Positions 1,632 to 63,299 are shown, counted from the stretch's first letter. The stretch is 64,000 nt of DNA from Candidatus Cloacimonadota bacterium (GCA_023137125.1 JAGLPW010000098.1:13751-77750), one strand, 5' to 3'. Numbers and translations: made by a program. The notes: generated by a model from the letters alone, not told the origin.

Positions 1632-1644
1632 CGTTACCTCTTTT

Positions 1645-1719: not shown

Positions 1720-1775
1720 TATATTGCTGTTGCTTAAATTGAAGAGTAGATAATATAAGGATAAAAACAAATACT

Positions 1776-1808: not shown

Positions 1809-1837
1809 CCTCATTCAAGTTTAAATGAGGAAATTTC

Positions 1838-2566
1838 TTACAAATTATAGCTTTCAATAATTTTTAGAACAAAACTGTAGAAGCAATATATCATCCCCAT
1901 TTTTAGGATCCCCTCAAAATATGGGATTACACTTATAGAGTTTCCGCTCATCATCAAATATCTTCCAACAAACGCAAAGATGAAGTAGACTGGAACTAAT
2001 AAAATAATTAATGAGAGATAGCGATTTATGAAGAATTTAGGGCTTACGCTCTTGATATTTTTTATTAAATTATTGAACACAAAGATAAACACTACCGTAC
2101 CGATCAAGGCCAGCGGAATATAGACAAGAAGCCAGGAATGACCAAGATGTTCAACATTTATTTTATCTAATAGGGTTGTAGTATCTTCAATTTTCTTACC
2201 TAGCTGTTCCCGCAGTAAGAGTATTTCATCTGCAGAAAGAATAAATGCTATCACACTGAATAATCTGATAAACCATTGCCGGGTTGAACTAATCTTTAAT
2301 TTTTCTCTATCCCCCCAGCCTATTAAAAAGAAACCGGAAGCAATGATCAACATCATAAAGCTGATGAACCAGGTTGCTAGGGAAAGATCATGTGTATAAT
2401 CCAATTGATAAAATACACCATGTATTATCCACATTAGCACTCCCCTATCTTTTACTAGGATAAGCTGAAAACCAAAAAAATATGACATAAAAGAAAAAAT
2501 AATGATCATGAGAATAACAAGAAGGATCGGTGTTTTCATTAATAATAAGAATTCTCTAAACTTCAT
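1838..2566 (-). CDS. Multi-pass integral membrane protein, function unknown
   Basis: 242 aa with about 7 hydrophobic segments. I recognise no family motif. Confidence 0.6.
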   Translation of the reverse strand: MKFREFLLLMKTPILLVILMIIIFSFMSYFFGFQLILVKDRGVLMWIIHGVFYQLDYTHDLSLATWFISFMMLIIASGFFLIGWGDREKLKISSTRQWFIRLFSVIAFILSADEILLLREQLGKKIEDTTTLLDKINVEHLGHSWLLVYIPLALIGTVVFIFVFNNLIKNIKSVSPKFFINRYLSLIILLVPVYFIFAFVGRYLMMSGNSISVIPYFEGILKMGMIYCFYSFVLKIIESYNL

Positions 2567-2593
2567 TTCAATTGCTCCTTTGGTATATTCTCT

Positions 2594-3820: not shown

Positions 3821-4008
3821 CTAAGCAATCCCCTTAACAAAATTATTTTTCTATTTTAGCAACTTGGCAACACATCAAATCATATACTGTCTATATATTC
3901 TATATCATATAGGTCAACTATAAAATTTATTGTTTTTTAAACACACTACAGCTCTTTTATGAAATCAACAATTTGATATTCATAGAGCAAGACATATTAT
4001 TGTAGTTC

Positions 4009-5925: not shown

Positions 5926-6069
5926 TGATCATTCCTTTTATATTATGGCTTTATATTTCGCTTAGCGATGAATAACCGTCAAGCATAACTATTATATTTT
6001 CATAGAACACTAACATATAGCTATAATTGTAAATCTGCTAGAAACAGCACAGTTATACCAATAATGCTC

Positions 6070-6100
6070 AAAAAATAGGACCCGGCAAAAACCGGGTCCT
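6070..6100 (-). terminator. Rho-independent terminator (GGACCCGG CAAAAA CCGGGTCC)
   Basis: Perfect 8-bp GC-rich stem. The minus-strand reading is followed by TATTTTTT. Lies 27 nt downstream of the OmpA-family gene. Confidence 0.8.
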
Positions 6101-6126
6101 ATAAAGTGCAGATTATTTATTATGTA

Positions 6127-7647: not shown

Positions 7648-7683
7648 GTACCACTCCTCCTGAATTATATATTTTTCAAATTT

Positions 7684-10600
7684 CTATTTTGCTCCCATAT
7701 CGTTCCTGGAACCATCGGCATCATTATATTCCTCCGCTGGATCTCCGGTATCGATACATGGGGATTCTTCTAATAGATCATAATTTCTATTGGCTGCATC
7801 TTTAAATTTAGGATCAGAATTTATTACTCCCATCTTAAAGAAAAGTGAACCATTATTATTTGTTTTAAAACCATCTTCTGCATTCATAATATTGGAATAA
7901 CTTAAAGCCATTGTAATCTTTCCAAATTTATGGAAACATACTTCTTGAGGAGAGTTGTTCCATAAAATTGAATTAGATATTTTTGGATTTGAGAAACTAT
8001 TGCAATAAATTGCTCCACCAAATTTAGCAGAATTATCGGCAATTGTAAGGTTATGCCAGTAAGAGGTTGAATACTGGGTATATATCCCACCACCATAACC
8101 ATATTCTGTACCAATGACCTCGTTACCTGCTATAACAATTTCGGTGAGTTCCGGGCTTGAATTATAAACATATATCCCTCCACCGAATTCATTGGCTTTA
8201 TTATCTATAATTTCCAATTTGTTAAGAATTGGATTAGAATTACTTAAATAAATTCCACCTCCGTAACCGTGCTTTGTCCCTAAAGAAGAATTATTTTCGA
8301 TCTTCACATTCTCAATTAGAGAGTTGGAATTATAGAGATAGAATCCACCGCCAAATTTCTCTGCATTATTATCTTTTATAATCATATCGCTAATTGTCGG
8401 AGTGGCATTATAAATAAAGATACCGCCTCCACGGGATCCATTTCCGGTTCCATTTTGGATCGTGAAACCGATGAGTTTTGCTTCCTCGGTCTCTTCGCTT
8501 TCAAAATTAACCACACTGCCGGAGCTCTTTCCATCAATAATAGTAGAAGTTATATATGATCTGTCTTCTGTCTCTTGAAATTTAGAGCAGACTGTTATGT
8601 TCTTACCTTCAAAATTTATATTTTCTTTATAGATGCCAGGCTGAACAATTACAACATCTCCCGAGACAGCAAAGTTAATTGCGGATTGAATTGTCGGATG
8701 ATCTTCGGGGACGCGCAATTTTCCAAAATGACATATAGCAGAATATATCTTAGATTCCGGTGAATTATTTCTATTGATATAACTATAAATTCGGTAATAA
8801 TATTTTTCGTGGATATCAATATCTGTATCAGTGTAAGATTCTGAATTTGCAGAGATATTTGCAATTGTTTTAAAATCGGCATTTTCTGTTCTTCTCTGAA
8901 TTTTGAAACCCTCTTCAATATTGCTGTTATCTGTCCAAGCAAGTTTAACCTGTCGATCTGCAATAACCGAAATCTTAAAATCCGAAGGAACGAGCAAGCC
9001 ATAATACTCCGAAACTGTATTTGTATTATGAGAGATATTCATATCTGTAAAGGCGTGAATGCGGTATGAATATTCTACATCGTAATCTAAGTCTTTATCA
9101 ATAAATTCTGTTATGTTTGATTTTACGCTTTTTATCACTCTATAATCAGAGTCGTTTTGGCTTCTCTCGATCTTGTAACCATCCTCAAAATAACAGTTAT
9201 CATTCCAATTCAATTTGATCTTACCGGCAGAGACAATCTCCGCACTTAGATTTGTTGGATGTGGAAATATAGTATTTAAGTATTCAACATTAGAAAAATC
9301 GGAATTGTTGACCGAAGTAGTTGCCTGAACTCTATAATAATAAGTTTTTTCAAACTTTAAGTTATCATCTGTATAAGAAGTTGAATTAGCAGGAAGTTTA
9401 ACAAGAATTTTAAATTCTTCATCCTCTGCTCTCCTTTCTATTTTAATCCCTGTTTCAAATTCACAGTTATCTTCCCAATAAATTGAAGCAGTTCTATCAT
9501 CGAGAATTTCTGAACTCAGATATGAAGGTCCGGGGAAAACTGTTTTTGCCATGATCTCACTTGAATAGTTTGAAGAGTTAGATTTTGTTACTGTTGCAAT
9601 CCGGTAGATATACTGTGTACCATATTTGAGCCCTTCATCCAGATATGAATCTGCTGAAGCTGCGAGTTCTTTGATCAAAACAAAATCTTCCTTTCCTTTC
9701 TTTCTTTCAATTTTGAATCCAGTATCAAATGTACAATTATCCATCCAGGATAATTTTAATGACTGGTCATCTAAAATAAGCACCGAAAGGTAGGTAGGCT
9801 CTGGAAAAATTGTCTTTGCAGATAATATATTGGAGTAGGCAGATTCGGATGCTGTTGTAAAAGCAATTACTCTGTAATTATAGGTTGTGCCAAAAGAGAG
9901 GTTGGAATCTAAGAAGTGTGTAGTATTTGGTTCTAGATCTGCAATTTCTTCAAATTCACCTCCACTTTCCTTTCTTTCCAATCTGTAACCCGTCTCAAAA
10001 GAACAGTTATCTTCCCAATACAATTTAAGTGATTGGTCATCGATATTTTCAGAATAGAGATTCTCGGGACCAGGGAAACCGGTCTTTGTACCGACCTCGT
10101 TAGAATATTCAGATTCATTTACTTTAGAGAGTGCTTTGATCCGATATGTGTATTCATCCCCTAATTGCATATTTTCATCCAGATAATCTCTCTCATCCTT
10201 ATCGAGTTTTATTATTATCTCATACTCTTCATTATTTACTTTCCGCTCAAGAATATACTCATGTGCCAGGGTGGATCTATCTTCCCAATATAGTTTCGCA
10301 GAATGGTCATTTAGGACATCAATATATAATTGTTGGGGTGAAGGAAATAATAATTCTGCCGATGCCGAAGCACTTGGCCGAGATTCATTTATCTCTGTAA
10401 ATGCTTTAATGATATAGATATATGTTTTACCGTCTTCTAATTCAATGTTGATAAAATAACGTGAATTCTTATCTACAATAGCAATTTCTTCAAATTCATC
10501 ATTGCCGGTTTTTCTCTCAATCTTAAATCCACTTTCATATTCATATCCATCATCCCATGTAAGGCGTACAGACTGATCATCTAGAGCTATTACTTTAAAA

Positions 10601-47532: not shown

Positions 47533-50500
47533 CTATTTTAGCAAGATCATTTTCCTTGTGGATGTATAATGTCCAGAACGCATTTTGTGAAAGTAAACTC
47601 CGGATGAAACATTTCTACCGCTGTCATTTTTTCCATTCCAAACTACATTATGAACACTGGCATTCATCTGTTCATCTACTAATTTCTTAACAAGCTGACC
47701 TTTGATGTTGTAGATATTGAGCGAAATCTTAGAATTCTCTTTGAGAGAATAACTTATTGTCGTTGTTGGGTTGAAAGGATTCGGGTAATTATGGTGTAAA
47801 CTTGTATGCAAAGGAATAAGAACATTATCTGAATCCAGAAGGTCGTTCTCTACTATTTCGGAAGGTGCAGAAGTTCCGCTTTCATAAACTGCTGTCACAT
47901 AGTATTTATAATTTCCGCTTGGTGAATTTATTTCGGAGTAATAAGTATTTTCCGTTGTCTGAATTTCAATGAAATCACCTGCATTATAACTTCGGAATAT
48001 CTTGTAATTCAACACATCGGTGTTGGGAGAATCCCAATTCAGACTAAAATTATTTCCCGAAACTGTCAGAGCTAAATTCTCCGGTGGTTCAAAATAGTTG
48101 AGTGTTGTATCGAAGGTTACGGTTTCTCCTGCATTTATTTCAAATGTGTTGGAGATTGTCTCATAACCTTCTAACAAAAATTCTACTGTGTGCGTACCAA
48201 CAGGTAACGGCAAAAAATACTCACCGGTCTCATTCGGAGTTCCGGCAAAAGTAGAAGAAACAATCTGAACATCAGACAATTCACCCGTTCCGTTTAGAAG
48301 TTCAACAGTTCCAGACAAAAAACCATAACTTGGTAATTGATCACCAGTTAATAGGATATTATCAATATTCCAGTTATGAATAGATGTCCAACCTCCCTCT
48401 ATATAATAGAAAGCAAATTGAAATTCATTAGATCCCACATCTTCGTTATCAATTGTCATATCTATTACAACAGGAACAGGATAGGCTAAGTTATTTACAG
48501 GAAGGTCATCAACAATATGCCAGTTACCGAAATTACTTCTTGTCATTAATTGCAATGTGATATCCGAAGCATAGTTATACAATAAATAAATAAAAGAGAG
48601 ATATAATTCGTTTGCTCCGGCAGTATTAATTACCGGACTTATCAAATGTGCCGTATTACCTGAAAAGGAAGAACCATCTAATTTGATCTCAGGTGATGAT
48701 CCACCCGCTTCTGAAGTATTGCTGATTTCCCAAGGATCATCATTGCCACCTGTTTGTTCTTGAGTCCACCCGAGTGAATTATAATCGGAAAAATCTTCGA
48801 CAAGTAATTGCATTTCTTGTGAAATAACCAGTTGAAATACTCCGGTTTCATTAGAATAATTATCCCCTGATATTGTGTAAGAAAATTCTGCAATATGTCC
48901 TACCGGTGCATTTACAGTAGCTGAAATACTAAATACTGCTGAGAAGTTATATTCTGAGGGGCAATTCCCAGTGTAATATTCAAAGGTATTTAGAACAATA
49001 TATTCATCATTTTCCGAAATCGAGATAGTAGCATTTTCCAATTCATCACCACCGGAGTTGAAAAAGTTTAAAATTAGATCAGTAGTCTCTGCAGGATCAA
49101 GATATTGATTATCACCATCATTTATGATTAATCCTGAGTAGTCTATTACCGGAGAATTTATCGGCAAGTTGAAATGAATTTCAAAATTCTGCAGATCCGT
49201 TTCAATATTCATTGTGATCATTGCCAGATGACCGTCCGGACAGTTTTCTGCAATTTCTATCGAAAAGTCGGAAAGATTTATTCCTGAGCTTCCGGCTAAT
49301 ATCCTGTTATAATCCGATTCATCTTGAATAATAGTGATGTATTCATCAGTGGAAGAAATTTGAGTGTGAATATCGTAAGCGGCTAATGAACCAACATTAT
49401 TTAATACAACATCCAGATCTATAGTCTCACCTACATCGGCTGTTCCGCTGTTATCATCATCGTTAATCGTGATTCCACCGAATAAAAGTTGTGCACCTTG
49501 ATGAGTTAAATGCTCCCCTGTAAAGACAATTGCCATTTCATTTTGCAGGGTCTTAGCCGCAACGGGATATTGATTATTACAAGTATATCCGAGTCCGATC
49601 GTTCCATCCGGATTTTCAATTCCTACAGTAGCATACAATCCGTGATCAACAAAAAAACCGCTGTAAGAACCTACATCGACATTATTTACTTCCAGATATT
49701 GCATTTTTATCACACTGTCACCGAGATAAGTAGGATTTGAATCCACATCATAAAGGATTACCTGAAATGTTTCAGGATCATTATTATACTCATTTATCAT
49801 ATTATCCCATTGAATTATAAATGCATCCAAGGTCGTGTCATATCTATAATAGACATCACCTGTTCTCAGATCATCCCAAAAAACTGCGATAATCGGAGAA
49901 GGACCGGAAGGACCCGGAATATTCCAATTCATAAAAGAAGTGTTGTCGGTGTCTCCCGGAGCTACCCAACCGTTTGAACAAATCGATAATTGATCATAAG
50001 TTTCTCCGTAAAACAGGAATTCTATAGGCAAATTGATGGTTGTGGTTTGCCCTGTATTTCCATTATCATTAAAGTTTAAATTAGTACCTGTGTTGCTGAT
50101 ATCGATCCAATCATATTCCGGAGTTTCAACATATCCTACATCACTGTCGTCATAGCAATAATAACCATATTCGTCGGGTCCAAGCGGATTTTCTACAGAA
50201 ACTTCACCAATTGATAACAGAAATGTTTGAACTTCATCATATCCGGCAGCATCAGTAATTGTAAGCAGCATAGGAATCTGCATTCCTGTGATCAATGATA
50301 AATCAGCGGAAATTGTGAATAGATCTGCTGAATTTTCTACACTTTGTCCCGTATTTATATTTCCGTAATTAGCAAAACCATCAATAATCTCAATTCTATT
50401 GTCAGTGCAAGATAATACACCACTAACAGTATTTCCAGAAACTTGCCCGATATTTTCCAGTGTGATCGTCAGGTTTTTCATATCTCCCGGATCGATAATT

Positions 50501-52860
50501 CCGTTACCTTGAATTTCATAATTATTTACCATCATATTGGGAGCAGATACATTCAAAATAAGATTATCAAACCAAACATTGGAATTATCATCTTCGATCT
50601 CTAATGTAAAAATAATTTCTTGTCCACCATAAACATCTCCATCAACCGTGAAAGCAAAATCATCATTAGCATAAGCCGATCCTCCTGAATTTATCGATCC
50701 GTAATCTGCTGAGTTATTGGTAATATTGATGTCATCAGATTCGCAAGACAGAATAGCACTTACGCCGTTTGCTGTAGTCGTTCCATAATTTTGTAACTCA
50801 ATCCCAAAAGCAATTGTTTCGTTTGAATTAATATATCCATCGTTATTCCCGGCAGAATCATCTATTTGAAAATCTGAATGATTAATAAAAACATCATTTT
50901 CAACTATCTCTATTTCAGAAATATTGGGGATAAAATTATGTTTCGTGACGGTAAGAGTTGCTGTTCCTGTTTCTTCGGGTTCAAACGGAAGTAATACAAA
51001 ACCGTTTTCAGCAGAGAAGGCTGTAGTTTGGATGTCGTTCATAACTATTGTAATCCAAGAGCCGGTAATAGCATCACCGTTTGAATCCGTGACTTGAATT
51101 TCCGTAAAGTTGTTTCCGACATTTATTTCGGAAGGTGCAACAACGTATATTTCTTCGGGAATTGCTGTCCATAGATCCAATCCCGGATCACCCATAAGAT
51201 TGTTCCAATATGAAAACTGTGTAACTTTATTAGCCGGATTTTCGGGATAATTTAAATAGAGATCATTTTTAGCATTTACCAAAGCACCACCGAGATTATA
51301 GATACCTTTGGAAAAAATGCCGTGAAAAATCCCTGCATCGACAATATTATTGAAACAAGTGTGCGTATTAGGTGTAGCAGTCGAGATAGCAGCAATTGCA
51401 CCTTTTGGAACACTGGGTGTACCTGCTCTTAAGAAAGCCTCTGAGTAGGAAGTTTCCGAGGCAAAATTACCTGTATTGCAACTAAGGGATACAGCTATGG
51501 GTAGCATAAAACCGTTGTTCAAACTATTTGTGTTACTGTTATCCCAACCGCTCATTCCTGCAAATCCGCGATAATTGAAATAACTTACACCACCGTTTAT
51601 ACCGCTCGTCATCTGTGAAATCCAAGGTCCCGAATATACTTCTGTGACGTCAAAATCGGGATTGTGCTGTAAGATCATATCTTTGATGAAAATATTTGTA
51701 TCGATACAAGATGTCCCTGAAGTTGTCGGATCACCTACGAGTAATGCTTTTTCATACCACTCGGTCTGATCAAGATATGGCTCTTTCTCGTAATGTAAAA
51801 TTTTACTGACTACAGTTTGTAATTCTAAAATTGAATTGAATGATAATCTGCCAATAAATGCGTCTGCCAGGATGTCATTTCCTTCCAACAATGTATAATA
51901 ATGATCTCCTTCTCCACTATCTACATAACCGGTAGGAATATTAAAGCTACCCGATGCATCACCCACCAGGCAGATGAATTCGGGTTTGTTCTCCCAATTA
52001 TCATATGCATCCTGAATATAACTTTTTATTTGATTTAATGATGTTCCGGTTTCGGCAGTACTTGCTGAGACCACATTAAACCCCTTCTCCCTTTTCCAAT
52101 CTGTGAGATATTCCAAAGTAGAAAGTACTGCTGCATTATTAGGATAGATAAATAAATAACTGGGTTGCTGGAATTCATCGTCACGACTTAAGAATGAATC
52201 GTAGTTTAGTAAACTACTTCGGTAAAGAGGTTCAAATGTTCGTGATTTTTTTCTGTCTGTAGTTTTTATGTTAGTTCCGGGATTGCCGTTCACACTAACC
52301 TCAACTTCTATGTTATTGATCACGTGCAACTCTTCTCTATGAGGATCGTATTGAAAGGCATTTACCGTAACAGCTACAATACGATAATCTCGCATAATTA
52401 CCGGCTCTCCGATCTCTACCTGGCTTTGTGGAAAGGATTGACTTCCATTATAAAAATCTTCATCAATTACAAATTCTCCACGATAAGGATTGCTTTTGGA
52501 ACTAAGCGGTTGCGATGGATAAATTTTTGTGTTAGGTATTACTTGTTCATCAATAGAAGTGATATTGAATGATACTTCACCAACATCAGGAATAGCTATA
52601 AGGCGTGTAAAACGCGGTAAATTCGGCTTCCCCTCTTCAATGAATCTTCCTTCATTTTCATAACTGATTTTGCTGAAAACTTCTTCGTTTTCTATAATCG
52701 TTTCCAGATCATAACCATCTAATTCAAACTGAATTGATGTTTGTGAACGGGAAAGTGAATTGTGGTTAAATAATTGAACGTTATTTTCTACTTCTACCCA
52801 AGCTGCAGAAAGAGATAGAACCAAGAAAATAAGTGCTAGTGTAAATATTAATCTTTTCAT
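47533..52860 (-). CDS. Very large secreted C25-like (gingipain/PorU-type) cysteine peptidase with multiple Ig/FN3-like domains and a T9SS CTD
   Basis: 1775 aa with a signal peptide. The N-terminal third resembles the peptidase C25 layout (EFICLVGDASG...GEGDHYYT; VSLSCNTGNFA as a possible catalytic Cys region). CTD NYPNPFNPTTTISYSL...RKMILLK. The family call is from memory of the motif pattern. Confidence 0.55.
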   Translation of the reverse strand: MKRLIFTLALIFLVLSLSAAWVEVENNVQLFNHNSLSRSQTSIQFELDGYDLETIIENEEVFSKISYENEGRFIEEGKPNLPRFTRLIAIPDVGEVSFNITSIDEQVIPNTKIYPSQPLSSKSNPYRGEFVIDEDFYNGSQSFPQSQVEIGEPVIMRDYRIVAVTVNAFQYDPHREELHVINNIEVEVSVNGNPGTNIKTTDRKKSRTFEPLYRSSLLNYDSFLSRDDEFQQPSYLFIYPNNAAVLSTLEYLTDWKREKGFNVVSASTAETGTSLNQIKSYIQDAYDNWENKPEFICLVGDASGSFNIPTGYVDSGEGDHYYTLLEGNDILADAFIGRLSFNSILELQTVVSKILHYEKEPYLDQTEWYEKALLVGDPTTSGTSCIDTNIFIKDMILQHNPDFDVTEVYSGPWISQMTSGINGGVSYFNYRGFAGMSGWDNSNTNSLNNGFMLPIAVSLSCNTGNFASETSYSEAFLRAGTPSVPKGAIAAISTATPNTHTCFNNIVDAGIFHGIFSKGIYNLGGALVNAKNDLYLNYPENPANKVTQFSYWNNLMGDPGLDLWTAIPEEIYVVAPSEINVGNNFTEIQVTDSNGDAITGSWITIVMNDIQTTAFSAENGFVLLPFEPEETGTATLTVTKHNFIPNISEIEIVENDVFINHSDFQIDDSAGNNDGYINSNETIAFGIELQNYGTTTANGVSAILSCESDDINITNNSADYGSINSGGSAYANDDFAFTVDGDVYGGQEIIFTLEIEDDNSNVWFDNLILNVSAPNMMVNNYEIQGNGIIDPGDMKNLTITLENIGQVSGNTVSGVLSCTDNRIEIIDGFANYGNINTGQSVENSADLFTISADLSLITGMQIPMLLTITDAAGYDEVQTFLLSIGEVSVENPLGPDEYGYYCYDDSDVGYVETPEYDWIDISNTGTNLNFNDNGNTGQTTTINLPIEFLFYGETYDQLSICSNGWVAPGDTDNTSFMNWNIPGPSGPSPIIAVFWDDLRTGDVYYRYDTTLDAFIIQWDNMINEYNNDPETFQVILYDVDSNPTYLGDSVIKMQYLEVNNVDVGSYSGFFVDHGLYATVGIENPDGTIGLGYTCNNQYPVAAKTLQNEMAIVFTGEHLTHQGAQLLFGGITINDDDNSGTADVGETIDLDVVLNNVGSLAAYDIHTQISSTDEYITIIQDESDYNRILAGSSGINLSDFSIEIAENCPDGHLAMITMNIETDLQNFEIHFNLPINSPVIDYSGLIINDGDNQYLDPAETTDLILNFFNSGGDELENATISISENDEYIVLNTFEYYTGNCPSEYNFSAVFSISATVNAPVGHIAEFSYTISGDNYSNETGVFQLVISQEMQLLVEDFSDYNSLGWTQEQTGGNDDPWEISNTSEAGGSSPEIKLDGSSFSGNTAHLISPVINTAGANELYLSFIYLLYNYASDITLQLMTRSNFGNWHIVDDLPVNNLAYPVPVVIDMTIDNEDVGSNEFQFAFYYIEGGWTSIHNWNIDNILLTGDQLPSYGFLSGTVELLNGTGELSDVQIVSSTFAGTPNETGEYFLPLPVGTHTVEFLLEGYETISNTFEINAGETVTFDTTLNYFEPPENLALTVSGNNFSLNWDSPNTDVLNYKIFRSYNAGDFIEIQTTENTYYSEINSPSGNYKYYVTAVYESGTSAPSEIVENDLLDSDNVLIPLHTSLHHNYPNPFNPTTTISYSLKENSKISLNIYNIKGQLVKKLVDEQMNASVHNVVWNGKNDSGRNVSSGVYFHKMRSGHYTSTRKMILLK

Positions 52861-52871: not shown

Positions 52872-53876
52872 TTATTTCAACAAGATCATCTTCTTAGTGG
52901 AAGTATAAGTGCCTGCTTTTATTTTGTAGAAATAAACTCCTGAAGAAACAGGTTTTTTTTCTTCATCGTCTCCGTTCCAGACAATCTGATGTATTCCTGC
53001 ACCAATTTTTTCATTAACTAACGTCTTAATCTTTTGTCCTTTCAGATTGTAAATGTCAAGATTCACAAACGATGACGTTTGTGCAACCGAAAAGGAAATC
53101 GTAGTCGTCGGGTTGAACGGATTTGGATAGTTACCGATGAGGTCAGTTGAAGGTACTATATCGTTTCCTGCACCAGTTCCTGTGTAAGTAAAATCTATCT
53201 CAATAATTTCGGAAGTACCCTCATCATAAACCGCAGAAACACCTGCCAAGTAGGTTTGTTCATTTACCAGGTCTTCAAATTGAAATTCTGTATCTGTGAT
53301 ATTTTCCAGAAATATTGAATCAAGGTAAATGTCATACCCCGTCAGAACTCTGGAAACAGGAGCATCCCAGGTAAAGAGACCTGTTCCTTCATCTACTGCC
53401 AGATTTTCAGGTGGCAATGTCTGATCAAAAGAAGCGATTGCTTCCGGTACCATATTCAAAGCTTGTTGGTAATAATTACTGCCATACATCAAGATATTGT
53501 TGGCTCCTATAACGATAAAGAAAGGGACATATCCATTTCCAAAATCCCAATAATAATCATCAATTTCAGTAGCAAAAGGCATTGACCAACCAATATCTGA
53601 CCAATCAAACGTGCAAATAAAATATATCTCATCCGGGTTTTGAGTTCCCCACCATGTATTCATAAACGGCGCCGCCGTATAACAGCCACCTCACCAATCT
53701 TCTCCCCAGAAAATTAATATGGCTTTACCAGCCGCTGTAAGTTCATGTATCGAATGATATTCACCATTACTGTCTGTCCATGAATAGTCATCGGTAATTG
53801 GCTCGCCAACTTGCCAAACTGCAAACAATGATATTGTCAACAGCAACATAACGAATACTAATAATTGCTTTTTCAT
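52872..53876 (-). CDS. Thioredoxin-fold (TlpA/ResA-like) protein with an in-frame UGA (probable selenocysteine, UGGC redox motif), an FN3-like domain and a T9SS CTD
   Basis: Tracked ORFs 53691-53876 and 52872-53663 are in the same frame, separated only by a TGA (53691-53693) and 9 sense codons. Merged reading: ...GKAILIFWGEDW-U-GGCYTAAPFMNTWW... Signal peptide at the N-terminus. A SECIS-like hairpin lies downstream of the UGA. Confidence 0.7.
53663..53681 (-). other. SECIS-like stem-loop UAUACGGC-GGC-GCCGUUUA, 13-31 nt after the U of the in-frame UGA
   Basis: Four G:C pairs plus A:U extensions with one U-U mismatch. The apical loop GGC places its Gs at +21/+22. The GC-only 13-mer ACGGCGGCGCCGT stands out in AT-rich DNA. 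Confidence 0.6.
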
Positions 53877-53904: not shown

Positions 53905-55818
53905 TTATTTCATCAAGATCATTTTCTTTGTAGAAGTATATACTCCAGATTTCAATTTGTAAAAATAGATTCCCGAAGAAACAGGTTTGTTGTTTTCATC
54001 ATCTCCATTCCAGACAATCTGATGTATCCCTGCATCCATTTCTTCATTAACCAAAGTCTTGACCTTCTGTCCTTTCAAATTATAGATTATCAGCTCTGTG
54101 CTTTCCGTGTTCTCTGTGGTTAAAGAAAAAGAAATCGTAGTAGTAGGGTTGAACGGATTAGGATAGTTTTTAATCATCTGTATGGCACCTTGTGGCAAGT
54201 TTTCTGATATGCCTACGCCAGAATCACCAAAACCTATAACAGAATACTCTTCCAAAATTGTATTATTGATAGTATCATGATACATCATCCGACCTCCAGC
54301 AAAAACTTCTTCTGTAGAAGGATTAATATCAACACTATTACCCCATTGAGGTCCTATTGCTCCCGGAAAGTTTTCAAATTCTTCATCTATCAAACTCCTC
54401 CAATAAACATCTCCTGTTTCGGCATCCAGCTTTACTGTAATCCAATCTTGCATGGTCGGGAAGATAGGGGGTGGAACTGTATAACTTTGAACAGCATTAT
54501 GGGTTTCTCCAGTTGCAATAACATAACCGGAAGGATCAAAAACCATATCATTGAGCCAATCATTTCCATAAGTATCATTTGGGTCTCCATCAAATTCATA
54601 TACCCAGTCTAATGTTCCGTCAGCAGCATCAAATCTTGCAATACAAAAGTCAACTGATAGACTACCATTGCTGAGAGTTTCGTTTGAAACAAAACCACCA
54701 CCAAAAATTGCATCGCTTGCGTCATCATAAACCAGATACTTACAAATATCAGTTGAGTCAATAAGTCCATTTACCGTAGTACTGACCCATAAAAATTCCC
54801 CATCCTGCGTGTCTATTTGTGCAACTGCAAAATCTTTACCGGTTGTTGATCCGGCCGGTCGTGATAAACCACCTACAAACAGTTCATCACTACTGTTCAT
54901 TGTAAGATTCCATGCCCATAGCGGATTATTATATAAACTTGAGGTTCCATTTGTCCATATGATATTACCATCCGAATCTAATTTTATTACAGAATTTTCT
55001 TCAACACCTACTTCTTCAATAAATTCTCCCTGAACATAAATATTTCCCAGATCATCCGTCTCAACATTTCTGCCACTTCCAAACCGTTCCCCAACTTCTT
55101 TCAACCACAACAGGTCACCATCGCTATTCAGTTTATATATGCCGCAGAATTGATGCGGAAAACCCTGATAATATCTTTGGATAAGCGATACAACAATAAC
55201 ATTGTTGTCGTTGTCCGTTGTAACCCCAAATCCCCAATCGGCAACAGGAAGACTAAAATCCCCTGCAAAATGCCGCGTCCATATAGTATCCTGAGTTGTT
55301 CGATCAAATTTAATGACCATAACATTCTGGCTTGAACCCGGGTAATATGACCGACCGGTAATAACAACATTTTCCTCCTCATCAATAACCATATCATAAG
55401 TTTGTCTGGGAAAATGACCTGAAGTTGTTTGATAAATATTCTTGGTATAATTAACATCTCCGTTGGCTGCGTTAAATTCAATAAAGGTGAGACTTTCATT
55501 ATCTTGTGTGCCCACAGTGAGTACGGTATTATTGCCAGGTTCATAATATACTTCATCACATTGACTCCAATCCGAAGGTAAGTCTGTGTAATGCCATAGG
55601 ATTTCAGGCTCAGTCCGCTCTCTCAATCCATGTGAATTTGTGCTGTTGTTGTGAAGTTTCGTAGTATCTGTTTCATACAATTGACTGTCAGGAATATCTT
55701 GTAAGAAACCGTTTTCATCATATTGCATTTCTGCAAAATCATCCATTCTCCATTGTTGAGCATAAATATTTGCTGTAAACAAAAGAGATACCGCCAAAAT
55801 CAAAATTAAATGTTTCAT
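53905..55818 (-). CDS. Secreted beta-propeller-like protein with a T9SS CTD
   Basis: 637 aa with a signal peptide. Repeated W-anchored blades (IWTRHFAG, LWLKEVG, IWTNGTS, LWVSTTV, DWVYEFDG, YWRSLID). CTD NYPNPFNPTTTISFSL...KKMILMK. Confidence 0.7.
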   Translation of the reverse strand: MKHLILILAVSLLFTANIYAQQWRMDDFAEMQYDENGFLQDIPDSQLYETDTTKLHNNSTNSHGLRERTEPEILWHYTDLPSDWSQCDEVYYEPGNNTVLTVGTQDNESLTFIEFNAANGDVNYTKNIYQTTSGHFPRQTYDMVIDEEENVVITGRSYYPGSSQNVMVIKFDRTTQDTIWTRHFAGDFSLPVADWGFGVTTDNDNNVIVVSLIQRYYQGFPHQFCGIYKLNSDGDLLWLKEVGERFGSGRNVETDDLGNIYVQGEFIEEVGVEENSVIKLDSDGNIIWTNGTSSLYNNPLWAWNLTMNSSDELFVGGLSRPAGSTTGKDFAVAQIDTQDGEFLWVSTTVNGLIDSTDICKYLVYDDASDAIFGGGFVSNETLSNGSLSVDFCIARFDAADGTLDWVYEFDGDPNDTYGNDWLNDMVFDPSGYVIATGETHNAVQSYTVPPPIFPTMQDWITVKLDAETGDVYWRSLIDEEFENFPGAIGPQWGNSVDINPSTEEVFAGGRMMYHDTINNTILEEYSVIGFGDSGVGISENLPQGAIQMIKNYPNPFNPTTTISFSLTTENTESTELIIYNLKGQKVKTLVNEEMDAGIHQIVWNGDDENNKPVSSGIYFYKLKSGVYTSTKKMILMK

Positions 55819-56019: not shown

Positions 56020-56035
56020 GCATTTGTTGTGCCAA
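56020..56035 (-). promoter_or_regulatory. Sigma-54 promoter TTGGCACAACAAATGC (minus strand)
   Basis: TGGCAC-N5-ATGC with GG-N10-GC spacing. Same TGGCACA-N4-ATGC form as the sites at 32485 and 63284. Confidence 0.8.
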
Positions 56036-56145: not shown

Positions 56146-56257
56146 TCGCAAATATGCGAAAATAAATTGTATAATTTACATAATATATGAGTTATCTTAT
56201 TTAATAGCTTGAGGTTAAAAATATTCGCATGAAATTGTGTGATTCGCAAATATGCGA
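56146..56257. promoter_or_regulatory. Two identical 17-mers TCGCAAATATGCGAAAA (inverted repeat TCGCA-N4-TGCGA) at 56146 and 56244; candidate bEBP enhancer sites
   Basis: Read directly. The copies are 98 bp apart and sit 111 and 209 nt upstream of the sigma-54 promoter, directly downstream of the TPR-bEBP gene. An extra half-site, TTCGCAT, is at 56224. Confidence 0.6.
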
Positions 56258-56318
56258 AAAAAGACGACCTATTCTTTCTCTGATTTACCGGTTATATGAA
56301 TGAAGATATACTTTACAA

Positions 56319-58439
56319 TTATTCAGATATTTTCTTTTTTAATATTCTATAGATTTGAGATTTGTTCAATTTTCCAAGTTCACATGCTTTAGGAATATCT
56401 TGATCAGATACATTTAGTAATTTATTTACATATTTCAAATCCAAATCATCACCCATTTTGGTTTTGAATAATTTATAATCTGACCAATCTATTGGAAACT
56501 CATCAATAGAAGCTGTTTCTGTTTTATGAGCCGCAGCAACAAAAAGCTCAATATGAAGCGTATCTTGTCCGCAGAGCAAAACCGCTTTCTCAATTTCATT
56601 TTCCAATTCACGAATATTACCCTGCCATGGTAGTGAAAGCAGATAATTAAGTGCGTCAGCAGATACTGTTTTGATCTTCTTACTGAATTTTTTATTGTAT
56701 TTTCCGATGAAATGATTCACCAGAGGTGGAATATCAATTTTACGCTCTTTAAGAGCGGGAATTTCTATTTTTATTACATTCAATCTGTAAAACAGATCTT
56801 CCCTGAATTCTGAATTGTCTATCATTTCCTGCAGATCTCTGTGAGTGGCGGATATTATTCTGATCGAAACAGGAACAGGTTTTGTGCTTCCTACCGGTGT
56901 GACAGTTCGTTCCTGAATTACCCGCAGCATTTTGGATTGCAGCGAAAGCGGCATATCTCCAATCTCATCCAAAAAAAGAGTACCGTTGTTCGCCATCTCG
57001 ATCTTTCCCTTTTTATTTTTATCTGCTCCCGTAAAAGCTCCTTTTGCATAGCCAAAAAGTTCACTTTCTAAAAGATGCTCCGGAATTGCTGAGCAATTGA
57101 TTGCAACGAAAGGTGAATTCTTCTTATATTTTCTGTGTATTGCTTTGGCAACAAGTTCTTTCCCGCTTCCCGTTGGTCCTGTTATCATCACATTTACATT
57201 ATGCTCTGCAACCATATTTATCATAGAAAAAACATCATTCATTATTTTACTTCTACCAATAATTTCCGGGAAATCAAACTTTTTATCCGCATTGTCTTCA
57301 ATAAACAGGTTATCTATTTTTTGCATTTGAACATTTGCAATTTTTCGTGCTGTTTCAATGTTCAGAATACTTTCTTTAATTTCAAAATATTTTTTTTGAT
57401 ATTTATAAGCTTTTGCAAAATCATCTAATTTAAAATAGATTTCGTTTGCAACTTTAAAGGTATTCAATTTTATTGTTTTTACATTCAATTCTTCTACTAA
57501 TTCTATTGCTTGATCAATATAACTCAATGCTGTATCAAATTTACCTATATAAAAATAAACTTCTCCGAGATTGCAAAGAATTGGTGACCATGAATACTTA
57601 TCCGATTTATCAATGTACTGCTCTGCTTGCAAAAAATAGGTTAAAGCAGATTCGTATTTTTTTTGAATTATATATATTTCACCAATATTATTTAAAGAAT
57701 ATGCTATGAATTTCTTATGATTTTCTTTTTTGAAAATAGTTAACGCCTTCTGATAATATTGATAAGAAAGATCATAATCTTTTGTGGAAGTGTGTGTTAG
57801 ACCAATATTCAAAAAGACAGAGGCTAGCAATATTTGATCATCATATGTTTCACTAATTTCAAGAGCTTTTTGATGATATTTAATTGCTCTATCATATAAA
57901 CCTACACTATTAAAGTTGTTTCCAATATTGGTAAGTGCGGCAATAATATTACGAGTATTATCTTCCTTCTTAGATTCATTTAATAAATAGAAAAGCGTTT
58001 CCAGTGATTTCTCATAATTTCCTACTTCATCATAAGCTCTTCCGAGATTTAAAGCTGAATTTGTATGGAATTTTTTGTCATCCAAAGTAGAACTTGCATT
58101 GAAACTCAAAGTGAGATATTTTATTGCTTCATCAAAACTATTTGTCCTCATGAAAGTATCACCAACATAATAATAACACTTAATAATATTTGTTTTATCT
58201 CCCAGAAGCTCAAAAATTTTGAGAGCTTGCTTGAATAAGCTGTTAGCTTTTAAGAACTCAGAAAGCTGATGGTAACTTATTCCGAGATCATAATAAAGCT
58301 TTGCTCTTTCGGCATCATCTTCTATCAAACTTATTTGTCCTGAAACTTTTACGGCAAGTTTTAGAGATTCTTTGGGAGAATCTTTTAAATTTTTCTTAAT
58401 TTTCTCTATAGATTTATTAATATCATCTTTCCTTTTCAT
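56319..58439 (-). CDS. Sigma-54-dependent activator with a ~370-aa N-terminal TPR sensor domain
   Basis: 706 aa. TPR repeats throughout the N-terminal half. Walker A GPTGSGKE, YAKGAFTGA, REDLFYRLN, and a C-terminal HTH (IPKACELGKLNKSQIYRILKK). Confidence 0.85.
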   Translation of the reverse strand: MKRKDDINKSIEKIKKNLKDSPKESLKLAVKVSGQISLIEDDAERAKLYYDLGISYHQLSEFLKANSLFKQALKIFELLGDKTNIIKCYYYVGDTFMRTNSFDEAIKYLTLSFNASSTLDDKKFHTNSALNLGRAYDEVGNYEKSLETLFYLLNESKKEDNTRNIIAALTNIGNNFNSVGLYDRAIKYHQKALEISETYDDQILLASVFLNIGLTHTSTKDYDLSYQYYQKALTIFKKENHKKFIAYSLNNIGEIYIIQKKYESALTYFLQAEQYIDKSDKYSWSPILCNLGEVYFYIGKFDTALSYIDQAIELVEELNVKTIKLNTFKVANEIYFKLDDFAKAYKYQKKYFEIKESILNIETARKIANVQMQKIDNLFIEDNADKKFDFPEIIGRSKIMNDVFSMINMVAEHNVNVMITGPTGSGKELVAKAIHRKYKKNSPFVAINCSAIPEHLLESELFGYAKGAFTGADKNKKGKIEMANNGTLFLDEIGDMPLSLQSKMLRVIQERTVTPVGSTKPVPVSIRIISATHRDLQEMIDNSEFREDLFYRLNVIKIEIPALKERKIDIPPLVNHFIGKYNKKFSKKIKTVSADALNYLLSLPWQGNIRELENEIEKAVLLCGQDTLHIELFVAAAHKTETASIDEFPIDWSDYKLFKTKMGDDLDLKYVNKLLNVSDQDIPKACELGKLNKSQIYRILKKKISE

Positions 58440-58521: not shown

Positions 58522-58633
58522 GATTAGAGATTAGGGATTAACTTTATTTTGTAATATTTCTTATTTATAGAATATAGAAAAGAAAAGTGAAATCTATTGC
58601 AAGATTTCACTTTATATTATATCAACTTATTTC
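58522..58633 (-). repeat. Conserved 3' module (heptamers + terminator GTGAAATCT-ATTGCA-AGATTTCAC + last CTD codons), paralogous to about 47384-47497
   Basis: About 5 mismatches over ~112 nt by eye. Terminator hairpin at 58587-58610. Confidence 0.8.
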
Positions 58634-60606
58634 AGAAGAATCATTTTCTTTGTTTGTTCAAGGCTACCTGATTTTAATTTGTAGAAATATAAACCACTGG
58701 AAATAGGTTTTCCGTTTTTATCATCTCCATTCCAGACAACCTGATGTATTCCTATATCCAATTTTTCATTAACTAAAGTTTTAACTTTTTGTCCTCTTAA
58801 ATTATAGATTATCAATTCCGTGTTCTCTGCGCTTTCTGTGGCTAACGAAAAAGAAATGGTTGTTGTCGGATTAAAAGGATTGGGGTAATTGCTGATCAGG
58901 GCTGTGGTTGTAAAAATCTCGTTACCAGCGCTCACGATATTAGGTACAAAATCAATTGTAACCATAACAGATTCACCTTCATCATAAACTGCAACAACAC
59001 CGGCTTCGTAGGTAGTTCCATTTATTAGGTCTGTGAATTGCCATTCCGTATCTATAGTGTTACCTTCCTGCTCGCCATCGAGGTAAACATTATAACCTAT
59101 AGGATCTACTGAAGAAGGAGCATCCCAGGTAAATTGTCCGTTAGCTTCATCTACAGTTAGATTTGTAGGAGGAAATAAGGGAGAACTGATCACGGCACCT
59201 ACTGCATCATCGGCATTTACCATCCCATATCCAGTGTACCTATCCCAACCCGGAGTTGGTTCTTCATCGATAATATCCGTAGTAGTGGAAGTGAGATAGA
59301 ACCTAACTTCTGCCGGTGTGAGGGTAGGATTTTTAGATTTGATAAGTGCTGCAACACCAGCAGCATAGGGAGTAGCACAAGAAGTACCAGCAAAGAGCAT
59401 AAAATAATCTCCTTGAGTAAATCCGCTAACTCCGATAACATCAGTAGTTGGAAGAATTGTTGGAGCAACCAGATCAACAGCATCTCGAGCATCTTGGATA
59501 TCAACACCATAACTCGACCCCCACCACATTTGTCCATCACAAGAAGTAGGACTTTTTCTTTCTGCACAAGGAGAAGCTGCACCCACGGCAATAACATGTT
59601 CATCATTTGCAGGATGAGAAATATATGGTTCATTGAAGTTTTGAGTACACGCCAATAGTGTAACGCCATTATCATAGGCATAAGCAATTGCTGCATCGGC
59701 AGAAGGGTTGGAACCTTGCTGTCCTTCGAATCCAAAACTCATACTGGCGATATCGACCCCATAATCTCCGCAATGCGTTAATGCATTGTTAATAATTGTT
59801 TGAGTTACAGCACCATTATAGGGTGAAATTTTTAAAGGCATGATACTACAGCCTCCTGCTACACCAGAAATACCAATTCCGTTATCTACTGCTGCCGCTG
59901 CTATACCAGCACAACAAGTACCGTGCCCTGCATCCATAAAACTATCATCCATCGGGTCATCATCATTGTCTCCGTAATCATAACCGGGAACACAATTATC
60001 GATCAAATCTTCATGATTGTAATCTACACCTGAATCTATGATAGCTATGATAATGTCGGGATTACCATAGCCTTGATCGTCATCCCAGGCCTCTTCTATA
60101 TGAGAGTCAAATCCAATTACTTGTCCGCTTCCGGGTCCGTTTAGCTCTGTATTATCATGTCCCCAGCAGTCATCAAAGTACGGATCATCGGGTGTAACAG
60201 AAAGATAATATATATATTCCGGATTAGCAAACTCGACATATTCATTATTTTTATAATATTTTATTGCATCCTCAATATCTGTTTTTTCGGGAACAAAGAA
60301 TAGGTACCAGCGAGCAAAACCGGTTTGCTGCTCCCAGACTTTATCATTTACTGGTCTGTGGGCCAGGATTATCTTTGTAACGTCATACTCGACATTCAAG
60401 GCATCTAATGTTTCTAAACCTGTTTGATCGATTTGTTCGTTATTTTGAAGTAATGCATTAATCTTTTCGGAAGCTTCTTCATTCAATTTTACTTTGATCC
60501 GATCGGAAGCATAAAGCTTTCTACCGTGACTGTCCAATATGATTCCTGTTGCAAATATAGAATTTATCAATAAAAATAATATAAGAAAAAATATTAATCT
60601 TTTCAT
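58627..60606 (-). CDS. Secreted S8 subtilisin-family serine peptidase with an FN3-like domain and a T9SS CTD
   Basis: About 659 aa counted from the ATG at 60606 (AGAGGAG RBS). Catalytic triad contexts IAIIDSGVDYNH, HGTCCAGIAAA, GTSCATPYAAGVAAL. CTD NYPNPFNPTTTISFSL...KKMILLK. Confidence 0.85.
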   Translation of the reverse strand: MKRLIFFLILFLLINSIFATGIILDSHGRKLYASDRIKVKLNEEASEKINALLQNNEQIDQTGLETLDALNVEYDVTKIILAHRPVNDKVWEQQTGFARWYLFFVPEKTDIEDAIKYYKNNEYVEFANPEYIYYLSVTPDDPYFDDCWGHDNTELNGPGSGQVIGFDSHIEEAWDDDQGYGNPDIIIAIIDSGVDYNHEDLIDNCVPGYDYGDNDDDPMDDSFMDAGHGTCCAGIAAAAVDNGIGISGVAGGCSIMPLKISPYNGAVTQTIINNALTHCGDYGVDIASMSFGFEGQQGSNPSADAAIAYAYDNGVTLLACTQNFNEPYISHPANDEHVIAVGAASPCAERKSPTSCDGQMWWGSSYGVDIQDARDAVDLVAPTILPTTDVIGVSGFTQGDYFMLFAGTSCATPYAAGVAALIKSKNPTLTPAEVRFYLTSTTTDIIDEEPTPGWDRYTGYGMVNADDAVGAVISSPLFPPTNLTVDEANGQFTWDAPSSVDPIGYNVYLDGEQEGNTIDTEWQFTDLINGTTYEAGVVAVYDEGESVMVTIDFVPNIVSAGNEIFTTTALISNYPNPFNPTTTISFSLATESAENTELIIYNLRGQKVKTLVNEKLDIGIHQVVWNGDDKNGKPISSGLYFYKLKSGSLEQTKKMILLK

Positions 60607-60718
60607 TTGCTCCTCTTTCTTTGTTTTGGAGTAAAACAACCGTGTTGTTTTTACATCAACACGGTTGATACGCTCCATATACTATTTCATCAGGATCTGT
60701 CTTGTGAAATCTCTTTTC

Positions 60719-62683
60719 TTATTTCATCAAGATCATTTTTTTGGTTGAAGTATAACTGCCGTTCTTTAATTTATACAGATACATTCCTGATGAAACAGGT
60801 TGATTATTATCATCCATCCCGTTCCAAACAACATTATGATTTCCTTGAGCAAGTGTACTATGAATTAATGTTTTAATTTTTTGTCCTTTCATGTTGAATA
60901 TTTCAAGATCCACAAACGAGGACGTTTGTGGTACAGAGAAAGATATTAATGTTGTTGGATTGAAAGGATTCGGATAATTCTGTTTCAATGAGAATACTGC
61001 ATTCACGACATTATCATCCGTTCCTACTTCCGATACAAGCGTTATGTTCAATGCATATGGCCCTGTTCCTTCCGGTACTTGTACTTCTTCGATAGTTTGA
61101 GAAATGTATCCATCCAGTGAAAAAGTGACATCATAATATCCAGGTATTATTGCCATTGAATAATCTCCGAGTGTATTCGGATTACCAGTAAATAGATTGC
61201 CGGCACTATCTTCAGCCTCAATTAGAACATCTACAACATTGCCGTAACCACCACTTAAAGTAACAGTACCGTAAAGATCTCCTGTTACATATCCTAGAGT
61301 GAAGTCGATATTACTGGTTGTTTCACCTTCTATTACGACTACATTATAGTTAGTTTGAGAAACATATCCAGCCATAGAAGTGGTTATATTATAAGTTCCC
61401 GGCAAAACTTCCAGTGTGTAATTTCCTGATTCATCAGGATTGGTTAATCCACCACCACCGGTAATTACAACATCTTCCACGTTACCGGCACCATTCAAAG
61501 TAACATTACCTTCAATAAATCCGGGATCTCCGGGTTCACCGTCTTCGATTTCTGCCATATACATATTTAAGTTTCCATCTATACTAATTGTTCCTGTTAA
61601 AAGGTAGTTCCCGGAAAACGTAGGAATAATCTCATTTGCAGTGAGATGCGGACTGTGATCGTACACCCTGTCCCAGACTAATGTTCCTTCAGAATCGGTT
61701 TTGATGATGTATATATCCAGATCAGTATAGCTTGTTCCTGTTATACCTGCTGCTAAAATCCCATCATCAGGTGTAGAGAGTATTGAATTTACAAACTCAA
61801 ATTGAGGAAAACCGAAATAACTTTCCCATAGGAAATTCCCATCAGCATCAGTTCTAACAATATAAGAATCCGCACCGCCAGCTCCGTAAGTATATGTAGC
61901 TCCACCGGCAATCAAATCTCCATTGGCGGCTTCGTTAACTGTTTCAAAAATTTCATCATCCATACCGCCGTAAGCTTGCTCCCAAAGAAATGAACCATCT
62001 GCATCGATCTTAACAAGATATCCGTCAGAGCCGCCGGCACCAAATGATTGAGTCATGCCTGCAATTACATAACTCCCATCCTGCGTTTGAATGATTTCCT
62101 TGCCGTATTCAGCCATCATACCGCCGTAATTTTGTGACCACTCTTCAATTCCTTCGGAGTCGATCTTTAGTAGCCGGATATCAAATCTTTGCATAGGATC
62201 TTCGTTTGAAGGCCCAGCAACGAGATAACCGCCGTCATCAGTAGCTAATATCGAATAACCTACCTGGTCATAAATTACTTCATATCTATAGTCCCATTCA
62301 ATGTTACCTCCCGAGTCCCATTTTATTACTAAGAAATCCTGTCCACCCTCCAGAGTTTGTTTATGTCCGGCTGTAACAAAACCTCCGTCATCTGCTTGAA
62401 CTACAGAATACGCTGTCTCAATATCATAATTATCACCATAAATTTGCGACCAGATAAATTGACCGGTCGAAGTTGTTTTCACCAACGTTGCATTTGGATC
62501 GATAGCAATAAACATTAAGCCTGAAACAACAAAATCCCCTTCGTCGGTTTGCAGTACCGAATACCCATATTCTGCACCTCCTAAATCATGATTTGCATCC
62601 CAGATAATATCTCCGGGATTAGCAAAAACCGCTGTTGTGAGCAGTAAACCTAAAATTACCGCTATGAATAATTTCTTTTTCAT
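60719..62683 (-). CDS. Secreted 7-repeat beta-propeller-like protein with two CarboxypepD_reg-like domains and a T9SS CTD
   Basis: About 654 aa counted from the ATG at 62683 (AGGAGA RBS). Seven W..YGG...DGGY..AG...G..D..LVK.D..G repeats. Two GxVTLxGGxGNVxDVxI...GxYxxxxxPGxYxV domains. CTD ...KKMILMK. Confidence 0.75.
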   Translation of the reverse strand: MKKKLFIAVILGLLLTTAVFANPGDIIWDANHDLGGAEYGYSVLQTDEGDFVVSGLMFIAIDPNATLVKTTSTGQFIWSQIYGDNYDIETAYSVVQADDGGFVTAGHKQTLEGGQDFLVIKWDSGGNIEWDYRYEVIYDQVGYSILATDDGGYLVAGPSNEDPMQRFDIRLLKIDSEGIEEWSQNYGGMMAEYGKEIIQTQDGSYVIAGMTQSFGAGGSDGYLVKIDADGSFLWEQAYGGMDDEIFETVNEAANGDLIAGGATYTYGAGGADSYIVRTDADGNFLWESYFGFPQFEFVNSILSTPDDGILAAGITGTSYTDLDIYIIKTDSEGTLVWDRVYDHSPHLTANEIIPTFSGNYLLTGTISIDGNLNMYMAEIEDGEPGDPGFIEGNVTLNGAGNVEDVVITGGGGLTNPDESGNYTLEVLPGTYNITTSMAGYVSQTNYNVVVIEGETTSNIDFTLGYVTGDLYGTVTLSGGYGNVVDVLIEAEDSAGNLFTGNPNTLGDYSMAIIPGYYDVTFSLDGYISQTIEEVQVPEGTGPYALNITLVSEVGTDDNVVNAVFSLKQNYPNPFNPTTLISFSVPQTSSFVDLEIFNMKGQKIKTLIHSTLAQGNHNVVWNGMDDNNQPVSSGMYLYKLKNGSYTSTKKMILMK

Positions 62684-62820
62684 CTTTTCTCCTGTTTTCA
62701 TCTTTTCCTCCAATTTTTTTGCCACAGAGATACGAAGATTGTAGAGATTTTCTCTTTTAATTCCCTTAATCTATGAAATCTGTGAGCCGTTTTTTTAATT
62801 AACATATTCATACTCCTTAA

Positions 62821-63283: not shown

Positions 63284-63299
63284 GCATTTGCTGTGCCAA
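63284..63299 (-). promoter_or_regulatory. Sigma-54 promoter TTGGCACAGCAAATGC (minus strand)
   Basis: TGGCAC-N5-ATGC with GG-N10-GC spacing. A leader of about 190 nt precedes the ATG at 63093. Confidence 0.75.

Follow-up and report, generated by a model that had tools for sequence, protein, structure and literature searches.

The locus described here raises a simple question: does a TGA that interrupts a predicted thioredoxin-like gene end that gene, or does it encode selenocysteine? The window, which is the whole stretch of DNA that was analysed, comprises 64,000 nucleotides of a Cloacimonadota metagenome-assembled genome (GCA_023137125.1 JAGLPW010000098.1:13751-77750), and its minus strand from 53876 to 52872 holds a single frame of 334 codons whose sole interruption is a TGA at 53693..53691. 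A first-pass annotation had recorded two open reading frames (ORFs), ORF1 of 61 aa and ORF2 of 263 aa, in a common frame with a gap of the TGA and nine sense codons between them, and our coordinates confirmed this arrangement (Table 1). When the TGA is read through, the junction becomes GKAILIFWGEDW-U-GGCYTAAPFMNTWW, where U is selenocysteine in the active-site context FWGEDW-U-GGC. Our study found that 53876..52872 is very probably one gene for an exported selenoprotein, with a signal peptide, a TlpA/ResA domain carrying U62-G-G-C65, an fn3-like spacer and a C-terminal sorting domain (CTD) of the type IX secretion system (T9SS). Sequence comparison and the modelling of a homologue support the components of this reading, namely one gene, a catalytic UGA, a covarying hairpin linked to the TGA, a ResA/TlpA fold and a secretion signal. 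Judged by its homologues, the gene is a genuine member of a previously unannotated selenoprotein family, and its predicted decoding mechanism is the ordinary bacterial one.

The homologue set consisted of 31 loci including the window, which provided 23 distinct junction sequences; the loci were obtained from protein look-ups, a scan of GTDB species genomes (10 loci), a scan of JGI metagenomes (9 loci), and the ENA and Logan metagenomes. By label, the GTDB loci were seven Cloacimonadota (one of them Ca. Tenebribacter mawsonii), two 'uncultured bacterium' and one 'Armatimonadota' bin. The family member of this last locus (L017, JABMPU010000168.1) closely resembles that of a Cloacimonadota locus (L014), and the contig is probably mis-binned; the family is so far confined to Cloacimonadota-type genomes. 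Protein identity to the window ranged from 100 % down to ~54 %, with both flanks of the TGA conserved. The U codon was TGA in 31/31 loci, and TGC, TGT, TAA and TAG were seen in none, so that the homologues are not split at random, but interrupted at the identical codon with coding conserved on either side. The redox motif across homologues is U-[G/P/D]-[G/S]-C. Every full-length member (334 to 1064 aa) has the same layout of signal peptide, thioredoxin-like domain with U at about residue 62, variable middle (fn3, PKD, beta-helix and CarboxypepD_reg modules) and C-terminal sorting domain. The genuine stop of complete family genes is TAA or TAG in 17/17 cases and TGA in 0/17. Within the window, TGA terminates 4 of the 34 long ORFs and has therefore not been reassigned genome-wide, and no further credible gene with an in-frame TGA was found in the window or the homologous loci.

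The same interruption explains how the family is seen in databases. The ORF2 product is identical to an NCBI protein, and the gene is therefore split in public annotation. When 5.8 billion proteins were searched with a profile, fragments alone were retrieved, among them seven N-terminal fragments that each terminate exactly before the U position and three C-terminal fragments that begin at the first Met after it. As every pipeline examined, that of NCBI among them, reports an orphan of 61 aa and a truncated 'T9SS sorting domain protein' in place of this gene, the family is mis-annotated across Cloacimonadota. The 61-aa piece extends no further than the signal peptide and the opening strands of a thioredoxin fold; the 263-aa piece has the secretion CTD and no signal peptide.

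A homologue with cysteine at the position of selenocysteine serves the field as a criterion for selenoproteins (PMC12013277; PMC1976440), and such a homologue was found. The 87 residues that follow the UGA were searched exhaustively with HMMER against 1.84 billion cluster representatives; 26 matched, and the majority of these were truncated gene calls. Three were full-length across the U site: P0022 (WCGGC), P0036 (WCPFS) and P0026 (WSPSS, a redox-dead SPSS motif). P0022, encoded at locus L028, is the sole full-length CGGC form among the 26; its Cys is aligned to the UGA and its motif codons are TGC GGT GGC TGT. On this alignment, P0022 and the TGA forms are a classical selenocysteine/cysteine pair. 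The family is almost wholly in the selenocysteine form, with one CxxC representative among 26 clusters. Paralogues were also observed side by side on one contig (L029), where a 2260-aa protein with a single-Cys CPFS motif, Laminin_G, PKD and a CTD (236..7018) is immediately followed by a selenocysteine-form paralogue (7317..8816, TGA at 7500).

The first-pass annotation had assigned the domain to the TlpA/ResA thioredoxins and had placed the UGA on the first catalytic Cys, giving UxxC, and both proposals held. A profile of 18 family members, compared with PDB sequences, had thioredoxin-fold redox proteins alone among the matches listed: the TlpA-like isomerase 3hcz (E 1e-4), tryparedoxins, ResA and thioredoxins. 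In the TlpA-like (3hcz), tryparedoxin and ResA chains, the residue opposite U is the first Cys of CxxC, and in P0022 it is likewise Cys. The fold was modelled on this Cys homologue and not on the window protein; the AF2 model had a pLDDT (predicted local distance difference test) of ~90 over residues 20-155, and Foldseek gave ResA 4nmu as its best match (E 1e-7, template modelling (TM) score 0.72), with DsbE/CcmG-type proteins and the pneumococcal surface thioredoxins Etrx1/2 among the other top matches. P0022 also scores 26.9 bits against the AhpC-TSA cut-off of 26, and C65 and the V-P of GNGYVPFF (cis-Pro) are invariant in the family. Profile and model support a predicted ResA/TlpA-type extracytoplasmic thiol-disulfide oxidoreductase with an N-terminal beta-hairpin and a thioredoxin fold.

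A hairpin resembling a selenocysteine insertion sequence (SECIS) had been proposed just after the UGA, with apical Gs at +21/+22 (U = +1), and this position was confirmed, with the core at 53678..53666. These loop Gs are invariant, as is the distance from UGA to hairpin across the TGA forms. The GC core of the hairpin, the 11-mer CGGCGGCGCCG, has a single occurrence in a window of 34 % GC. Given the residues T-A-A-P, the codons ACG GCG GCG CCG have a probability of 7e-5 from window codon usage, in which GCG makes up 5.9 % of Ala codons. The hairpin was examined in a gap-free alignment of the 23 junctions as a 6-bp helix with a GGC loop; the stem is of 5-6 bp and longer in several sequences. 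Standard pairs occupied 92.8 % of cells, a value reached by 0/500 shuffles, and the pairs 45/59, 46/58 and 47/57 covary, with two-sided changes of the types A-U/U-A, G-C/G-U/A-U and C-G to A-U (L018, L030, L035). The covariation score was 0.230, compared to a mean of 0.087 for shuffles (0/500 as high) and ≤0.105 when the helix register was slid by 1-3 columns.

Codon choice at the hairpin is equally distinctive. Third-position G is present in 66/68 cells across the four hairpin codons, whereas the third position of the remaining conserved four-fold codons in the domain varies freely and seldom holds G (1-5 of 14-18 sequences per site). The Cys form keeps Ala-Ala-Pro and writes it GCT GCT CCT, from which the hairpin cannot form; the GC-rich structure therefore tracks the TGA and not the protein sequence. 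In other words, the hairpin was found to be conserved in TGA-containing orthologues, with compensatory changes, and to be absent from the Cys form. As read from these alignments, it is made of nearly all synonymous codon choices over a protein-conserved Ala-Ala-Pro at the start of helix alpha1. The common bacterial SECIS core is a 5/6-bp hairpin a few nucleotides after the TGA with an invariant loop G, and by analogy the geometry observed here fits both this core and the minimal E. coli fdhF element (PMC4607533).

Several observations weigh against the selenoprotein interpretation. Folded alone, the window RNA prefers a competitor in which the spacer GGCUG pairs with ACGGC (-13.5 vs -9.8 kcal/mol), which leaves the hairpin a probability of ~0; with UGA in the A site the spacer would be covered by the ribosome, and the competitor fold would thereby be removed. 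The conserved hairpin is the minimum-free-energy structure in just 9/18 sequences, and single-sequence folding of the junction was uninformative (z-score 0.1). RNAalifold picked two different small helices without covariation, which were not adopted as they show no compensatory changes. One sequence (L015) carries a broken pair, and the hairpin core is nearly invariant, so the covariation rests on three pairs and probably reflects few independent events. No Rfam SECIS match was obtained, either for the window at gathering score or for 53600..53730 at an E-value threshold, and these scans returned tRNA-Arg and chance matches alone. The window protein itself falls below the Pfam and NCBIfam cut-offs for thioredoxin-type families (AhpC-TSA 17.8 bits vs 26, ResA 15.9 vs 170). 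The genes selA, selB, selC and selD were not found in the window or the fetched loci, the whole genome not having been searched, and no tRNA-Sec was present in the window or 25 loci. An electron donor beyond the outer membrane was not identified. Finally, synteny with the C25 peptidase that follows the gene in the window was not found and neighbours differ among the homologous loci, which makes the link to proteases weak.

Among the alternatives, the one that survives best is decoding of the UGA as Cys or Trp by a suppressor or near-cognate tRNA, in which case the hairpin would be a read-through stimulator alone. Stop-codon read-through aided by 3' structures is known in other systems. Such read-through would have to fall, however, on the nucleophilic Cys of a CxxC motif, where exchange of selenocysteine and cysteine is the rule (PMC1976440), and be stimulated by a hairpin that matches the bacterial SECIS core in its size, its distance from the UGA and its loop G. 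Elsewhere in the window TGA acts as a normal stop, and the phylum has been reported to have its own type of tRNASec, described as the Cloacimonetes type (PMC5330540). We consider non-selenocysteine read-through very improbable. A shade less probable again is the proposal that the 13-mer is conserved for Ala-Ala-Pro, as a DNA-binding site or as a pause or regulatory hairpin, with the UGA decoded independently. The retention of Ala-Ala-Pro even in the Cys form is what such a constraint would predict, as is a hairpin that half of the sequences are not predicted to adopt as their minimum-free-energy structure, but neither accounts for a rare codon fixed at synonymous sites in the TGA forms alone and relaxed in the Cys form, for pairing kept by compensatory changes, or for the invariant distance to the UGA. 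Least probable of all, and effectively refuted by the comparative sequence data, is a TGA that is a real stop in a nonsense pseudogene or between two independent genes: every gene caller, including that of NCBI, annotates the split and an ATG lies nine codons past the TGA, but this ATG is unconserved (the first Met of homologues is at query positions 10, 25 and 37), the TGA is at the same codon in 31 loci of at least 10 species with conserved flanks and no other stop, the downstream piece would have a secretion CTD with no signal peptide, and the stop would cut one thioredoxin fold at its active site.

Table 1. Features of the selenoprotein locus, with positions counted from the first letter of the window unless another locus is named
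Feature	Position	Strand	Details
Complete selenoprotein coding sequence	52872..53876	-	334 codons including selenocysteine 62 (Sec62); same read-through layout in 31 homologous loci
True stop TAA of the selenoprotein gene	52874..52872	-	
ORF1	53876..53691	-	61 aa + TGA
ORF2	53663..52872	-	263 aa
In-frame UGA, predicted selenocysteine U62	53691..53693	-	First residue of UGGC redox motif; motif 53682..53693
SECIS-like hairpin UAU-ACGGC-GGC-GCCGU-UUA	53663..53681	-	Loop GGC
Hairpin core 13-mer ACGGCGGCGCCGU (ACGGC-GGC-GCCGU)	53666..53678	-	12 nt after UGA
Predicted Sec-type signal peptide MKKQLLVFVMLLLTISLFA	53820..53876	-	By eye (MKK + hydrophobic core + LFA|VW); conserved in homologues
TlpA/ResA-like thioredoxin-fold domain	53427..53816	-	Residues ~21-150; invariant cis-Pro motif Y-V-P-F-F
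fn3-like beta-sandwich spacer	53208..53414	-	Pfam fn3 E 0.0016; 19 bits vs cut-off 25, sub-threshold
T9SS type A C-terminal sorting domain	52884..53129	-	TIGR04183 42.3 bits (cut-off 23); PF18962 32.6 (cut-off 27)
Cys-form homologue (CGGC)	L028 3001..5120		Separate 160-aa AhpC/TSA-Redoxin gene directly after it
Upstream gene, beta-propeller protein with T9SS CTD	53905..55818	-	Ends 28 nt before selenoprotein start
Downstream gene, 1775-aa C25 (gingipain-family) peptidase with T9SS CTD	47533..52860	-	Starts 11 nt past selenoprotein stop
Sigma-54-type -24/-12-like element TGGCACAACAAATGC	56020..56034	-	TGGCAC-N5-ATGC; ~200 nt upstream of three-gene cluster
Palindrome TTCGCATATTTGCGA, two exact copies, candidate activator sites	56146..56160, 56244..56258	-	0/100 shuffles give 3 matches
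TPR + sigma-54 activator (bacterial enhancer-binding protein, bEBP) gene	56319..58439	-	

If the gene encodes a selenoprotein, a ribosome arriving at the UGA at 53693..53691 would hold the 12-nt spacer within its mRNA channel and would show the mini-hairpin, with G21/G22 in the loop, at the channel entrance. Recruitment of SelB.GTP.Sec-tRNASec by the hairpin could follow, in the manner of the minimal E. coli fdhF SECIS, whereupon selenocysteine would be inserted at the UGA and translation would proceed. The product would be exported by the Sec pathway, sorted by the T9SS, and act outside the cytoplasm as a thiol-disulfide oxidoreductase, with the selenolate as the group that attacks substrate disulfides and C65 as the residue that resolves the intermediate. 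Its most likely partners would be the co-encoded secreted C25 and S8 peptidases, and the enzyme might either open disulfide-bonded protein substrates or keep the cysteine peptidase reduced. SelB-dependent insertion, Sec-then-T9SS export and extracellular disulfide reduction or isomerisation for peptidases are steps that we infer, the decoding from the comparative data and the function from fold, motif and context.

The remaining claims of the first-pass annotation, on the export domains and on transcription, fared less evenly. The T9SS CTD stood, well above the cut-off of its model, and the fn3 domain remained sub-threshold. T9SS is possibly present in Cloacimonadota (PMC11285876), and the window encodes at least 5 further CTD proteins. 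A sigma-54 operon is plausible, on evidence that is suggestive only: there is a -24/-12-like element, two palindromes and an adjacent activator gene, and the element has one mismatch to the consensus, with matches of equal quality not significantly enriched in the window. The palindrome copies lie ~110 and ~210 nt upstream of the element and are candidate binding sites of the adjacent TPR + sigma-54 activator. A second, near-identical -24/-12-like element (TGGCACAGCAAATGC, 63284..63298, minus strand) was seen upstream of a cluster of CTD-protein genes, formed by 60719..62701 and an S8 peptidase at 58627..60678; the arrangement hints that T9SS cargo genes may form a sigma-54 regulon.

At least six genes for T9SS type A CTD proteins lie between 38547 and 62701, among them those of an S8 peptidase, a C25 peptidase and beta-propeller proteins. 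Genes for two sigma-54 activators and a 1151-aa Ser/Thr kinase-TPR protein are interspersed with these, and we describe this region as an island of secreted hydrolases with dedicated regulators. The 1775-aa neighbour of the selenoprotein gene matches Pfam Propeptide_C25 and Peptidase_C25, and its CTD was confirmed; its identification as the T9SS sortase PorU was rejected, as the PorU model matches in the CTD alone.

A targeting module other than the CTD was also observed in the family. In L033 (1501..2826) and L034 (466..1791), a selenocysteine-form member has a dockerin replacing the CTD and is flanked by a dockerin-bearing C10 peptidase and a cohesin/BACON protein. A cellulosome-like complex has been described for Ca. 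Stygibacter (PMC8542988), and the gene content of these two loci suggests that the selenoprotein domain has also been recruited to a complex of that type. This dockerin setting again points to an extracellular, protease-associated role.

The commonest class of bacterial selenoproteins is formed by thioredoxin-fold UxxC proteins whose SECIS is intragenic (PMC1976440), and the kind of protein found here is therefore already known. The classes in the literature include the 'Prx-like thiol:disulfide oxidoreductase', 'thiol:disulfide interchange protein', 'thiol-disulfide isomerase-like' and 'DsbA-like' proteins (PMC1976440). The window family shares with them selenocysteine in place of the first Cys of CxxC, an AhpC/TSA- or TlpA-like fold, the existence of a Cys homologue, and a SECIS hairpin just 3' of the UGA within the coding region. 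It differs, on a comparison of the classes by description only, in matching no NCBIfam or Pfam selenoprotein model and in being unannotated in NCBI. It is also unlike them in its fusion to spacers and to a T9SS CTD, for which some members have a dockerin instead, and in being almost solely of the selenocysteine form, in Cloacimonadota-type genomes so far.

The best structural and profile matches are ResA, TlpA, CcmG (DsbE) and Etrx1/2, of which Etrx1/2 are surface-exposed. In common with the window protein they have an N-terminal beta-hairpin joined to a thioredoxin fold, the W-C-x-x-C context, a cis-Pro loop and a location outside the cytoplasm, which for the window protein is predicted. However, these proteins carry Cys, are held by a membrane or lipid anchor at the cytoplasmic membrane and depend on CcdA/DsbD for their reduction, whereas the window protein has a predicted selenocysteine, a predicted signal peptide that would be cleaved off, and an outer-membrane secretion signal. 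Only one homologous locus, L013, had a CcdA-type gene nearby: a DsbD_TM/CcdA-type membrane electron-transfer gene (4814..5623, Pfam E 1e-41) lies ~750 nt downstream of the selenoprotein gene, and its product could be a pre-secretion reductant supply for the thioredoxin domain. The loop G of the fdhF SECIS is G23. That element, whose upper stem-loop is ~11 nt from the UGA, and the epsilonproteobacterial SECIS core of 5/6 bp (PMC4607533) resemble the window hairpin in being short, intragenic, of fixed spacing and provided with a loop G, but the window hairpin has a three-base GGC loop, an all-GC stem, no bulged U and an unconserved lower stem. The gene likewise resembles those of T9SS type A cargo such as the gingipains, having a signal peptide and a TIGR04183 match above cut-off and being encoded among CTD proteins that include a C25 peptidase, with the caveat that T9SS function in Cloacimonadota is itself inferred.

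With public gene calls split, no curated model, and no paper linking selenoproteins with type IX secretion found in a full-text search (weak negative evidence), the family appears to have been unrecognised hitherto. Its sequences make it unusual in two respects, the near-exclusive selenocysteine form and the predicted outer-membrane or extracellular targeting modules. It is conceivable, though we would sooner doubt than assert it, that this is the first bacterial selenoprotein family sent past the outer membrane, by way of a T9SS CTD or, in relatives, of a dockerin that would bring them into a cellulosome-like complex with peptidases, and that it represents an extracellular selenolate reductase of anaerobic protein degraders. 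If so, a selenolate disulfide reductase would open disulfide-bonded substrates or activate secreted cysteine peptidases, and the near-exclusive selenocysteine form would be explained by the lack of a dedicated reductase outside the cell.

In summary, the family offers a clean natural case of a SECIS in synonymous sites, with a hairpin-free Cys form as control, and a useful training case for predictors of bacterial SECIS elements and selenoproteins. Cloacimonadota are abundant in anaerobic digesters, landfills and anoxic waters. Recognition of the family adds a selenium requirement to its host organisms, for which selenium dosing matters in digesters, and suggests that selenocysteine chemistry takes place outside the cell, beside secreted peptidases.

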